A DNA stretch of 64,000 nucleotides. Source: Planctomycetota bacterium (lineage in GTDB: Bacteria; Planctomycetota; MHYJ01; WSZJ01). The stretch's first letter is position 1, and the number at the start of each line of letters is the position of its first letter. The position numbers were made by a program, and so were the translations under genes. Shown here one piece after another: positions 2,056-6,589 of this stretch. The notes beneath the pieces are model-generated. The model worked only from the letters and a program-made list of their open reading frames with translations, was not told the DNA's origin and ran no database searches. The DNA lies in NCBI GenBank assembly GCA_038060895.1, contig JBBTCT010000012.1, forward strand, positions 62,200-126,199, written 5' to 3'.

Positions 2056-4185
2056 ATGCGAAACCACACCCTCATCCTGTTGGCTGCCGTTGCCGCCTCC
2101 CTCCTCTTCCCGCGCACCGCCCATTCCTGATGGGTCTACACGGAGCGACCCGGGGAGGTCGAGTTGCGCGAGACGCACGCGAAGATGTCGATCCGGGAGG
2201 ACGTTGCGGAGAAGAGGCTCCGGATGAAGTTTCACAACACGGGGAGCGGGGCGAACACGGAAGCGACGTTCTTCATGGAGCTGGAGCCGGACCAGCGGGT
2301 GGAGAGCTTTTCGGTGACGATCGACGGGAAAACGGCCGAGGGAGAGATCCTGGACGCGGAAAAAGCGCGCAAAATCTACGAGGGAATCGTCGCGAAGCAG
2401 AAGGACCCGGCGCTTCTCGAGTATTACGGAGCGCGTCTCCTGCGTGTACGCATCTTTCCTGTCCCTGCGAACGCGGACTTCGAGGTCGAGATCAGGACGA
2501 TCGAAGCGCTGCGGTCCCAGGGCGGCCTGGTGCGCGTGAACACGCTCAACGCGGTTCCGGCTTCGTTCCGCAAGCCGCTGAAAACGATGACGGTCGAAGC
2601 GACGATCGAGTCTTCGAAGCCGCTGAAGGCGGTTTTCTCGCCGACGCACGACATCGTGGCCGCGCGCACGGGGCCGCGCGCGATGAAGCTGACCTACTCG
2701 CGGCAGGACTACTTTCCCGCGGGGCCGTTCGTCTTCTATTACCAGGCGAGCGAGGAAGCGTTCGGCGCGGCGGTGCTGGCGTTCGAGGAGCCTGGCGAGG
2801 ATGGCGCGTTCATGATCACGATCGCGCCTCCCGCCGACGGAACGGCCGGCGAGCGCCTTCCGCGCGACATCGTCTTCGCGCTCGACACGTCGGGGAGCAT
2901 GCTGCAGGGCGACAAGATCGGGCAGGTGCGCAAAGCCCTCGCGGCCTTCGTCGAGACGCTGACCGACAAGGACCGCTTCAATATCATCACGTTCTCCACG
3001 GAAGCCCGGGCCTGGCGCGAATCCCTGGTGACGGCGACTGCGGAAGCAAAAGCGGCCGGCGTCTCGGCGGCCAACTCGCTCAACGCGCGCGGCGGAGCGG
3101 CGATCGAGGACGCGCTCAAGCTGGCGCTCGCGCAATCGTTCCGGCCTGACGCGACGAAGATCGTGGTCTTCCTGACAGACGGCACGCCGACCATCGGCGA
3201 GCGGGACGACGAAGCGCTCCTGAAGATCGCCCGCGGGCGCGGCGTCCGCGTCTTCGCCTTCGGCGCGGGATTCGACCTGAACACTCGCCTCCTTGACCGC
3301 CTCGCGATCGAGAACGGAGGCGACCGGCAGTACATCCATCCCAACGAGAATGCAACCGAGGTCCTTGCCAGCTTCGCAAAACGAATCGATGCGCCGCTTC
3401 TGGCCGACCCCGTTCTGAAATTTGCGGGCGTCGAAGGAAGCGCGGAAGTGACCGACGTGCAGCCGAAGAAGCTCCCCGATATTTTCCAGGGTGGCTCGGT
3501 CGTGGTCACAGGACGCTTCAAGGGAAAAGGGGCGCGTCGGATCGAGCTGAGCGGAACGGCGGGTCGGGAGACCCGGTCCGTGTCCTACACGCTCGATTTC
3601 GCTTCCGAACCGCGAAACGACTTCGTGCCGCGCCTGTGGGCGATCCAGCGGATCGACTTCCTGCTCGACGAAATCCGGACAAGGGGCGCTTCGAAGGAAC
3701 TTGCCGAGGAGATCGTGCGTCTCTCGAAGAGATACGGGGTCGTCACGCCGTACACGGCGGGGCTGATCACGGAGGATGTTCCGGTGACGGCGGCGGGGAT
3801 CGAGAGGCGTGTGGGGCAGTCGGCCGGCGCGAACTACAACGGGCAGCAGGAGTGGGAGCTGGGGCGCAACCAGCAGGAGTGGCGTGGAGCGTACAACCAG
3901 GAGCGGCAGCAGCTGGCCGCCAACGGAGCGCTGGGCCGCGGGAACGACGCGAACGCGCAGGCCGAGCTGATGAACCGGCAGCGCAACGTGGGCAACCGGG
4001 CGTTCTACAACCGGGGCGGGGCGTGGCAGGAGAGCGGCTACGAGGCGCAGGTCGCGCGGACGCTGAAGTTCGGGACGGAGGAGTACTTCGAATTCCTGAG
4101 AAACAACGACGGCGCAGGCGCTGTGCTCGCGCTCGGTCGCAACATTACGTTCAGGCTCGGGTCCGAATGGATCCGGGTCGAGTGA
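2056..4185 (+). CDS. secreted VIT + vWA domain protein with in-frame TGA at codon 25 (candidate selenoprotein or recoded gene)
   Basis: ATG 2056 reads MRNHTLILLAAVAASLLFPRTAHS*WVYTERPGEVELRETHAK in the same frame as ORF 2164-4185. VIT-like region (KDPALLEY, RIFPVPAN) and MIDAS DTSGS are present. Confidence 0.75.
2128..2167 (+). promoter_or_regulatory. in-frame UGA with downstream SECIS-like hairpin
   Basis: TGA 2128-2130. Stem CGACC (2146-2150)/GGTCG (2157-2161) with loop CGGGGA about 21 nt after the UGA. A competing GGGTC/GACCC hairpin lies directly after the UGA. Confidence 0.45.
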
Positions 4186-4196
4186 GGAGAAGAGTC

Positions 4197-5303
4197 ATGA
4201 AAAGGTTCCTGGCAGTGGCACTGGCGCTCGCGGCGGCCATCCCGGCGCGCGCCGAAGAGAAGGTCAAGCTCGGCGAAGTCGACGTCGTTTTCTGCATCGA
4301 CAGGTCCGGCAGCATGGACCAGGTGATCGACACGGCAAAACAGAAGATCTGGGGGATCGTCAACGACATCGCGAAAGTCCGGCCGACGCCAGTGCTCCGC
4401 ATCGGGCTCATCGGTTACGGCTCGGGCAACACCGATTTCCGCTTCTTCGACCTGACCGATGACCTCGACACCGTCTATTCCAATCTCATGACGTTCAGGA
4501 CGGACATGGGCGGCGACGAATGGGTCGGCGCTGTGATCCAGAAGGCGACGAAAGAAATGAAGTGGAGCAAGAACAAGGAGGCGCTTCGCATGATCTTCGC
4601 CGTCGGAAACGAGACGGCGATGCAGGGGCGCGAGGATCTGCTCTATCCGAAGACGGTTCCCGAAGCGATCAAGGCTGACATCGTCGTGAACGCCATCTAC
4701 TGCGGACAACCGAATGCCGACGAAGAGCGGACATGGCGCGAGGTCGCGAAGCTCGCCGACGGCTCTTACACGGTCATCGACATCACCGGCGGCGCGATCA
4801 CGATCGCAACGCCGATGGACGAGGAGATGTCGAAGCTCAACGAGGCGCTCAACAAGACGTACATCGCCTACGGCCACAAGGGCAAAGACGGGCTCAGACA
4901 GCAGGAAGAACAGGACAGAAACTCCTCGGATAACGGCGGCGCTTCCAATGGCGCCCAGCGTGCCGAGGCGAAGTCATCCGGGGTCTACAACAACTCGAGC
5001 TGGGACATGGTGGATGCGTGCAAGGGCAAAGACTTCAAGATCGAGGACGTCAAGGACGAAGACCTGCCCGAGAACATGCGGAAGATGACGCTCGACGAGA
5101 AAAAGGCCTACATCGCCACCATGAAGGCCGAGCGCGAGAAGATCCAGAAGGAAGTCCAGGCGAAGGCGGTCGAGCGGCAGAAGTACATCGACGCCGAGAT
5201 CAAGAGCAAGGGGCTGACGCAGGACAAGGCGTTCGACGAGGCCGTGCGCAAGATGGTGCGGGAGCAGGCGGAGAAGAAGGGGTTTGAAGTGGGTAAGGAG
5301 TAA
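4197..5303 (+). CDS. secreted vWA-domain protein (paralog 1)
   Basis: GAGGAG RBS, signal peptide MKRFLAVALALAAAIPARA, MIDAS DRSGS, coiled-coil C-terminus. Confidence 0.85.
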   Translation: MKRFLAVALALAAAIPARAEEKVKLGEVDVVFCIDRSGSMDQVIDTAKQKIWGIVNDIAKVRPTPVLRIGLIGYGSGNTDFRFFDLTDDLDTVYSNLMTFRTDMGGDEWVGAVIQKATKEMKWSKNKEALRMIFAVGNETAMQGREDLLYPKTVPEAIKADIVVNAIYCGQPNADEERTWREVAKLADGSYTVIDITGGAITIATPMDEEMSKLNEALNKTYIAYGHKGKDGLRQQEEQDRNSSDNGGASNGAQRAEAKSSGVYNNSSWDMVDACKGKDFKIEDVKDEDLPENMRKMTLDEKKAYIATMKAEREKIQKEVQAKAVERQKYIDAEIKSKGLTQDKAFDEAVRKMVREQAEKKGFEVGKE

Positions 5304-5344: not shown

Positions 5345-5379
5345 CGGGCGCGGGTTTTCTACCGCGCCCGTTTTTGTTT
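5345..5379 (+). terminator. rho-independent terminator
   Basis: CGGGCGCGG...CCGCGCCCG stem followed by TTTTTGTTT. Confidence 0.8.
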
Positions 5380-5476: not shown

Positions 5477-6589
5477 ATGAAGACGAAGATGTTTGCAGCC
5501 ATCGCCCTTGCGCTCGCGGCCGGACTTCCGGCCCGTGCCGAAGAGGAAAAGAAACCTGGCGAGGTCGACGTGGTCATCTGCATCGACCGCTCCGGAAGCA
5601 TGCAGCAGGTCATCGACACGGCCAAGCAGAAGGTCTGGTCGATCGTCAACGACATCGCCAAGGTCCGGCCGACGCCCGTGCTGCGGATCGGCCTCGTTGG
5701 GTACGGCTCCGGCGACCGCGAGTTCCGCTTCTTCGACCTCACCGACGACCTCGACACCGTTTACAAGAACCTCATGACCTTCAAGACGGACATGGGCGGC
5801 GACGAGTGGGTCGGCGCCACGGTCCGCAAGGCCACGAAGGACATGACGTGGAGCAAGAACAAGGAAGCGCTTCGGGTGATCTTCATGGTCGGCAACGAGA
5901 CCGCGCACCAGGGAACGGAAGAGAACATGTACACGAAGACGGTCCCGGAGGCGATCAAGGCGGACATCATCGTGAACGCGATCTACTGCGGGAAGCCGAA
6001 CGCGGATGAGGAGCGGACGTGGCGCGAGGTGGCGAAGCTCGCCGACGGCTCCTTCACGACGATCGACATCTCCGGCGGCGCAGTCGCGATCGCGACGCCG
6101 ATGGACGCCGACATGGCGAAGATGAACGAGGAGCTGAACAAGACCTACGTCGCGTTCGGCGAACGCGGCCGAGAGAAGAAGGACAACCAGAAGGCGCAGG
6201 ACGCTGCGGCGGGCGAAGCGGGCGGTGGCGGCGTGGTCGCCGAGCGCGCGGCCGCGAAGGCCTCGGGCGCCTACAACAACAGCGGCTGGGACCTCGTGGA
6301 CGCGTCGAAGAACAAGGACTTCAAGCTCGAGGACGTGAAGGACGAAAACCTTCCCGAGGAGATGCGCAAGATGTCCCTCGAGGAGAAGAAGGCTCACGTC
6401 GCGAAGATGGCCGCCGAGCGCGAGAAGATCCAGAAGGAGCTGCAGGCCAAGGCCGCCGAGCGCGCGAAGTTCATCGAGGACGAAATGAAAAAGCAGGGCC
6501 TGAACCAGGACAAGGCGTTCGACGAAGCCATGCGCAAGATGATCCGCGAGCAGGCGGCGAAGAAGGGGATGGAGATCGGTAAGGAGTAG
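5477..6589 (+). CDS. secreted vWA-domain protein (paralog 2, tandem duplicate)
   Basis: GAGGAG RBS, signal peptide, MIDAS DRSGS, long stretches identical to 4197-5303. Confidence 0.85.
   Translation: MKTKMFAAIALALAAGLPARAEEEKKPGEVDVVICIDRSGSMQQVIDTAKQKVWSIVNDIAKVRPTPVLRIGLVGYGSGDREFRFFDLTDDLDTVYKNLMTFKTDMGGDEWVGATVRKATKDMTWSKNKEALRVIFMVGNETAHQGTEENMYTKTVPEAIKADIIVNAIYCGKPNADEERTWREVAKLADGSFTTIDISGGAVAIATPMDADMAKMNEELNKTYVAFGERGREKKDNQKAQDAAAGEAGGGGVVAERAAAKASGAYNNSGWDLVDASKNKDFKLEDVKDENLPEEMRKMSLEEKKAHVAKMAAEREKIQKELQAKAAERAKFIEDEMKKQGLNQDKAFDEAMRKMIREQAAKKGMEIGKE

Follow-up and report, generated by a model that had tools for sequence, protein, structure and literature searches.

The DNA analysed here (the window) is a stretch of 64,000 nucleotides from a Planctomycetota bacterium (GenBank assembly GCA_038060895.1, contig JBBTCT010000012.1, positions 62,200 to 126,199 of the forward strand); it lies on contig C12 of a 47-contig, 5.4-Mb genome (G000), and the host lineage is an uncultured groundwater planctomycete. 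Positions 2056–4185 of the plus strand carry a gene for an adhesin-like, presumably secreted VIT-vWA protein, in which a TGA lies in frame at codon 25 and very probably specifies selenocysteine (Sec, U). The ATG at 2056–2058 opens a 24-codon signal peptide (MRNHTLILLAAVAASLLFPRTAHS, 2056–2127) with Ala at -3 and Ser at -1, the cleavage site being placed by the -3/-1 rule only, and the TGA (2128–2130) stands directly after the A-H-S motif, so that the predicted mature protein begins with this codon. When the TGA is read as U the translation runs MRNHTLILLAAVAASLLFPRTAHS-U-WVYTERPGEVEL and onward, and the next stop is met only at the TGA of 4183–4185; orthologs end at the same place, by TGA, TAG or TAA. 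These features, i.e. the signal peptide, the in-frame TGA and the open VIT-vWA frame, had been noticed in a preliminary description of the locus and are confirmed here. The remaining mature chain (2131–4182, plus strand) is ITIH-like, with a VIT region, a vWA domain and a C-terminal region of helices and beta strands. Pfam recognises VIT (PF08487) at residues 37–147 (DNA 2164–2496; 75.3 bits for a gathering score of 26.5) and VWA (PF00092) at residues 271–433 (2866–3354; 76.1 bits for a gathering score of 23.8), and NCBIfam returned sub-threshold matches only, the best being TIGR03788 (marine proteobacterial sortase target protein), at 208 bits for a cut-off of 551.65. A 204-base contig of metatranscriptome run X11, labelled as an aquifer metagenome, matches 2568–2700 without a difference, which is at most a hint of transcription; among the runs with small word shares (X10–X20), X11 is the only one used.

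The same TGA is found at the identical codon in nine loci whose proteins share 51–100% identity: seven species genomes (the genome of the window, G002, G006, G009, G052, G054 and G055) and two metagenome contigs (L135 and L143). A six-frame search of 41 related genomes, including that of the window, yielded orthologs that share 84, 65 and 58% identity and whose matches each contain a single TGA; in translation it falls at the same codon in all of them, right after a small-x-small motif (DAHS-U-WVYTERPG, DAFA-U-WIRTEQPG and HAEG-U-WVYTEGPG). The census of the class (56 genomes) gave an ortholog in eight genomes (E <= 1e-145), seven with TGA and one, G047, with Gln; a scan of metagenome contigs added the two further TGA loci, and a 401-genome sample of the phylum no extra ortholog, a weak negative since only two candidates per genome were scored. 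Every one of the nine TGA loci has an in-frame Met, a hydrophobic core and small residues at -3 and -1 abutting the TGA. Two other VIT-vWA matches containing one TGA (in G022 and G034) proved to be ordinary stops at gene ends. A whole-genome search by regular expression (signal peptide, TGA, open frame) gave seven matches, among which only the window gene was plausible, the others appearing by eye to be Arg/Ser-rich off-frame noise.

The sequence on the far side of the TGA behaves as coding DNA. Over 36 pairs, the 18 codons that follow it have a median dN of 0.215 and dS of 0.659 (nonsynonymous and synonymous divergence), and their ratio, dN/dS 0.27, indicates purifying selection; these codons are therefore translated in frame, and no start codon lies between the TGA and them. 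Downstream, about 685 codons follow in an unbroken frame with a conserved protein sequence. Besides, positions 2128–2130 are covered by contigs from three other runs (X2, X3 and X8, of three studies, one of which may be the study of the source sample) with zero differing letters: they carry TGA, not TGC, TGT or TGG. The public gene calls examined for the TGA forms all begin past the TGA (21 of 29 ortholog clusters), so that the signal peptide is lost, and no cluster bears a selenium-related name. This is an error of public annotation, by which proteins of the TGA form wrongly pass for cytoplasmic ones, labelled “hypothetical” or “VWA domain”.

In the nearest paralog clade (33–37% identity), a Cys is aligned to the TGA and likewise follows an A-x-A-type site, e.g. 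AHA/CFIHSPLP; one such Cys-type paralog (35% identity) is encoded in the same genome, on contig C24. Of the 29 ortholog-level clusters of the protein database, those of full length show at this position Cys (the near-orthologs P0025 and P0026), Ser, Asp, Gln, Ile or Gly, and cluster P0028 lacks the segment. In alignment A2 (115 rows) the mature chain, as predicted, begins with Cys in 29 rows, by hand count. Related planctomycete VIT proteins thus do have Cys at this position, as the preliminary description had suggested. Most of the non-Cys rows begin with D/A/N-G-hydrophobic. The mature N-termini of this alignment fall into classes that extend across phyla: D/N/A-G-[FLIM]-I-[IV], C-F-M-R-S-P, C-R-I-I-I-R-P-P and U/C-W-V-x-T. 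Such a small number of conserved classes suggests that the mature N-terminus is itself a functional element.

When 34 rows were placed on a tree, Cys forms made up both the outgroup and the basal lineage. The TGA forms belong to a 25-row clade (support of 100 in the SH-like approximate likelihood ratio test, SH-aLRT) that contains all seven rows with Sec verified on DNA, 15 calls starting past the TGA (P0003, P0005, P0008–P0012, P0016, P0018–P0022, P0024 and P0030) and three nested replacements, by Gln, Gly and Ile. As judged from these sequences, this fits one change from Cys to Sec followed by at least three losses. The ancestor of the Sec is thus an N-terminal Cys, a residue widespread in this VIT-vWA family.

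The genome has what is needed to decode UGA as Sec. Profile searches detected selA, selB and selD, all above curated cut-offs (541, 344 and 364 bits, respectively, the selB match extending over the C-terminal part), and a tRNA-Sec scoring 71.7 bits for a cut-off of 47, which ARAGORN also calls tRNA-SeC with anticodon TCA. The system is in use: selD is itself a selenoprotein gene, its TGA standing where Sec is canonical (...SSCAGUASK...), and so is fdhA, coding for the alpha subunit of formate dehydrogenase, whose TGA is likewise at the canonical position, in ...CNRTUHAPS... (contig C2, 48628–49548 on the minus strand and 208308–210185 on the plus strand, respectively). Hairpins lie 18–19 nt past both Sec codons, with the loops GGC in selD and GGUCU in fdhA. 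Within the class selA exceeds its cut-off in 47 of 56 genomes, and in six of the seven genomes with the TGA form. None of the refuting conditions named in the preliminary description was borne out: the Sec genes and the tRNA were all found, the contigs of other runs kept the TGA, and homologs had TGA in nine loci and Cys in the sister lineages. Its core interpretation, Sec at the UGA, is supported.

For a bacterial selenocysteine insertion sequence (SECIS), the published criteria as summarised in PMC13188914 are a loop of 3–9 nt with a G in its first two positions, a stem of 4–16 bp, a location 16–37 nt after the UGA and a minimum free energy of at most -7.5. The hairpin pointed out beforehand, CGACC-CGGGGA-GGTCG, is present on the plus strand of the window (2146–2161, i.e. 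CGACC at 2146–2150, loop CGGGGA at 2151–2156 and GGTCG at 2157–2161, in an extended structure of about 2131–2177), with 20 nt from UGA to loop. It is however weak when taken alone and occurs in two of the nine TGA loci only, those of the window and its closest relative; the other seven share a stronger hairpin a few bases downstream, (C)CGGGGCUC-GUN-GAGCUCC(GG), whose loop occupies nt 31–33 counted from the U of UGA and has C, G or A as third base (GUA in L135, GUC in L143). The hairpin of the window is placed seven bases upstream of this common one. The ortholog form CCGGGGCUC-GUC-GAGCUCCGG is regarded as ancestral; in the lineage of the window the common stem was lost through a Leu-to-Glu change, and a new 5-bp stem exists there only. 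The candidate SECIS hairpin was swapped within one genus (2131–2177 of the window compared with L022, L023, L050, L052, L053, L135 and L143). All the loops, GUC, GUG, GUA and CGGGGA, match the published pattern, as do those of selD and fdhA, with which a comparison had been advised. In a permissive scan allowing lower stems, the seven genome TGA loci all comply with the published constraints, at -11.8 to -26.3 kcal/mol, and the Gln ortholog shows no qualifying hairpin in either the strict or the permissive scan. The hairpin agrees with what is expected of a SECIS, but the case for Sec does not rest on it.

The mature chain was modelled with AlphaFold2 from 115 aligned relatives, with a mean confidence (predicted local distance difference test, pLDDT) of 90.3 and a predicted TM-score (pTM) of 0.90, and it begins with a short first strand at residues 2–5. 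Foldseek gives human ITIH1 (6fpy) as the best solved match (E 1.5e-33, TM-scores 0.46/0.52, 20% identity). A preprint mentions, for ITIH-type VIT-vWA proteins, an AlphaFold-predicted 6_3 knot involving the termini (10.1101/2023.06.16.545156). The mature chain of the window contains no Cys; its orthologs have zero to three, at positions that are not conserved, so that a UxxC or CxxU motif is lacking, as is a resolving Cys in cis. The Sec is therefore not part of an ordinary redox pair.

Downstream of the VIT-vWA gene, two vWA genes follow in the same orientation. The first, which we call the partner gene (4197–5303, plus strand), starts 11 bases after it and codes for a secreted vWA protein of 368 amino acids; the second (5477–6589, plus strand) is a tandem paralog with a signal peptide and 74% identity to the partner. 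The signal peptides announced for both genes were recovered as signal-peptide-like starts ending in ARA/EE. Between the tandem copies, after the partner gene, a terminator-like G+C hairpin with a T run is seen in the sequence (5346–5376, plus strand). Upstream, a MgtE-type gene lies on the opposite strand. The partner gene is directly downstream in all seven species loci for which downstream DNA is available, including that of the Gln form, and also in L135. With 818 proteins at E <= 1e-20, the partner family exceeds the Sec clade in size, and it is highly conserved, most members sharing at least 52% identity.

Several results weigh against this interpretation. The contiguous 5-bp stem of the window reaches -5.9 kcal/mol and misses the -7.5 threshold of the strict scan; with the lower stem it reaches -17.1 kcal/mol, but seven of 70 in-frame positions drawn at random from this gene are just as stable. 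More generally, 174 of 490 random in-frame positions (36%) pass the same criteria in these G+C-rich genes, and the form of the hairpin differs among the TGA loci, two having one form and seven the other. Synonymous sites around the hairpin are not unusually conserved (57 of 156 runs are as conserved), and an Rfam scan of 2090–2240 found no SECIS family, only two chance matches to long non-coding RNAs. Besides, selA was not found in one of the TGA-form genomes (G052, 87% complete), and Sec was replaced by Gln, Gly and Ile, not by Cys, in three lineages. These replacements indicate that the rest of the protein can do without the residue, and they weaken any claim of an essential catalytic role. 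Concerning the function of the protein, the MIDAS, or metal-ion-dependent adhesion site (DxSxS ... T ... D), of the vWA domain is incomplete in the copy of the window: DxSxS and the Asp are present, and Ala (GCG, 3097–3099) stands in place of the Thr that 114 of 115 aligned relatives have, the 84%-identical ortholog among them. The orthologs possess the whole motif. The metal site may be weakened in this strain, or the assembly may carry a variant here. Lastly, the Cys residues of the partner are not invariant (71, 63 and 14 of 79), which weakens the idea of a fixed selenylsulfide link to the partner.

How well do other explanations account for these data? The UGA might be read through without Sec, by near-cognate insertion of Trp, Cys or Arg or by leaky termination, which would keep expression low. 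The statistical weakness of the SECIS evidence and the unrelated residues that took the place of Sec in three lineages speak for it. On the other hand, the organism possesses a complete Sec system, which it employs for selD and fdhA, sister lineages have Cys exactly at this position, which is the classic pairing of Sec with Cys, and a hairpin follows the codon in all TGA forms and is absent from the Gln form. We therefore consider such a readthrough improbable.

Similarly improbable is that Sec is inserted but then serves as a lipoprotein-type anchor, carrying diacylglycerol after processing by signal peptidase II, so that no free N-terminal selenol would exist. A Cys right after the signal peptide is indeed the hallmark of bacterial lipoproteins, and the related genomes encode distant VIT-vWA paralogs with lipobox-like ends: the signal peptides of L146 (G022, contig C82) and L147 (G034, contig C6) end in ...MAGC and ...LWGC. 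Judging from these ends, some members of the family, unlike the Sec clade, are probably true lipoproteins. The lipobox consensus is L-[AS]-[GA]-C, from which the nine TGA loci depart: position -3 is Ala in all of them, and position -2 is His, Phe, Glu or Asp. In the Cys forms, position -2 is occupied by Arg, Gln, Asn or Glu. Both agree with the rule for signal peptidase I. The motif that precedes the Sec thus fits signal peptidase I rather than a lipobox.

It is still more doubtful that the 24 codons form a separate upstream open reading frame and that the VIT-vWA protein starts at the ATG of Met44 (2185–2187) and stays in the cytoplasm. Met44 is invariant in eight orthologs and the public calls, as said above, begin past the TGA. 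However, the purifying selection acting in frame concerns precisely the 18 codons between TGA and Met44, which make up strands one and two of a fold modelled with confidence, and the Pfam VIT match already begins at residue 37. Moreover, features of a signal peptide and an A-x-A-type site abut the TGA in nine of nine loci, and the Cys forms and other full-length relatives are continuous across this point. Finally, although a fresh nonsense mutation in one genome, or an assembly error, would also appear as a single in-frame stop, a pseudogene is practically dismissed by the recurrence of the TGA in nine loci down to 51% identity, by the agreement of contigs from three other runs and by the intact frame and conserved protein that follow for some 685 codons. 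We retain that the UGA of 2128–2130 very probably encodes Sec, an insertion that we infer from the conservation of the codon, the Cys of the sister lineages and the contigs of other runs, and that the gene 2056–4185 is, with the same high probability, an intact selenoprotein gene and not a broken one.

The following scheme can be proposed from the sequence. The ribosome would synthesise the 24-residue Sec-pathway signal peptide and then reach the UGA, where SelB and tRNA-Sec would insert Sec with the help of a hairpin beginning 16–20 nt downstream; translation would then proceed through the ITIH-like VIT-vWA chain. Given the A-H-S/U site, the protein is most likely exported and cut by signal peptidase I just before the Sec. 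The mature chain would consequently start with Sec and expose both a free amine and a selenol. The position of the UGA at codon 25 also implies that a failed insertion yields a signal peptide only, so that the supply of selenium could gate production of the protein at little cost.

By analogy with ITIH1, the Sec would be situated at the end of the beta-sandwich, far from the metal site of the vWA domain. It might serve there as a point of covalent or coordinating attachment, i.e. a tether through a diselenide or selenylsulfide, or a ligand of soft metals, and binding would fall to the vWA end together with the secreted vWA partner, transcribed along with it. Because the Sec is alone, at a free terminus and opposite to the MIDAS in this analogy, such a role of attachment or ligand is favoured over catalysis. 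A more specific proposal, possible but rather unlikely in our opinion, is that the N-terminal Sec, deliberately exposed when signal peptidase cuts, offers as a 1,2-aminoselenol a reactive handle by which an ITIH-like adhesin is held covalently at its base, a structural and non-redox use of Sec. The bond might be a diselenide or selenylsulfide surviving in reducing, anoxic groundwater, or a ring adduct with a carbonyl or a thioester on a glycan or protein partner. If true, this would account for the widespread N-terminal Cys of the VIT-vWA family.

To our knowledge, the bacterial selenoproteins described so far are almost all redox enzymes in which Sec belongs to an active-site motif, and N-terminal Sec is otherwise known only from synthetic ligation chemistry. 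Our literature search found no description of a VIT or vWA selenoprotein, nor of a natural N-terminal Sec. In line with the preliminary description, which did not know VIT-vWA as a selenoprotein family, the 2026 inventory of prokaryotic selenoproteins, with 119 families and subfamilies, lists no VIT or vWA family, and “von Willebrand” and “vWA” are absent from its main text (PMC13188914). “Willebrand” is likewise absent from the main text of PMC4807772, whose planctomycete selenoprotein candidates sit in supplementary Table S9 and might bear on novelty. What is new here is the family, the class of fold and the place of Sec as first mature residue of an exported protein; the decoding is ordinary. 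If true, this is a new placement of Sec, an exported protein of the binding type whose sole conserved chalcogen is Sec at mature position 1, and it raises the role of N-terminal Cys or Sec in a very large and uncharacterised family of planctomycete surface proteins.

A first comparison is with FdhA and SelD of the same genome, whose genes resemble the VIT-vWA gene in their in-frame TGA and in the short G+C hairpin, its loop led by G, that comes after it; FdhA and SelD differ in being cytoplasmic enzymes of established families, with Sec in a known active site. Lipoproteins and N-terminal nucleophile (Ntn) hydrolases acquire a functional Cys as mature residue 1 through proteolytic processing, but the VIT-vWA protein has neither a lipobox nor the fold of an Ntn hydrolase. 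The exported selenoproteins of the thioredoxin fold (DsbA-like, DsbG-like and the thiol:disulfide interchange protein) are periplasmic and use the same SelB/SECIS route as the VIT-vWA gene. All three are listed as selenoproteins in Table 1 of PMC13188914. They differ by having UxxC inside the fold, whereas in the VIT-vWA protein Sec comes first, without a partner Cys, on a fold of adhesion or binding. The Cys-type VIT-vWA paralogs of Planctomycetota and neighbouring phyla (CFMRSP..., CRIIIRPP..., CWVHT...) have the same architecture, with a chalcogen after an A-x-A-type site, and differ by Cys in place of Sec; two additional Cys, without counterpart in the Sec clade, are found in the VIT region of the CFMRSP clade, and most Cys-type paralogs have no adjacent partner gene (within the 1.5 kb examined).

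Among proteins of known structure, ITIH1 shares with the bacterial protein the order VIT region, vWA, C-terminal region, the extracellular location and a vWA domain with a MIDAS motif. Its N-terminal region and its last strands together form a large beta-sandwich that carries the hybrid and vWFA domains, its MIDAS mediates a Mg-dependent self-association, and its covalent link is an ester between the C-terminal Asp and a glycan, as described in PMC7170535. ITIH1 differs in being eukaryotic, without Sec and without any function of an N-terminal Cys, and in its C-terminal covalent link; where it has bikunin and TSG-6, the bacterial protein has the gene of a secreted vWA partner. Should the reactive handle be real, it would parallel the glycan link of the mammalian ITIH heavy chains, made at the other terminus and with the chemistry of selenium.

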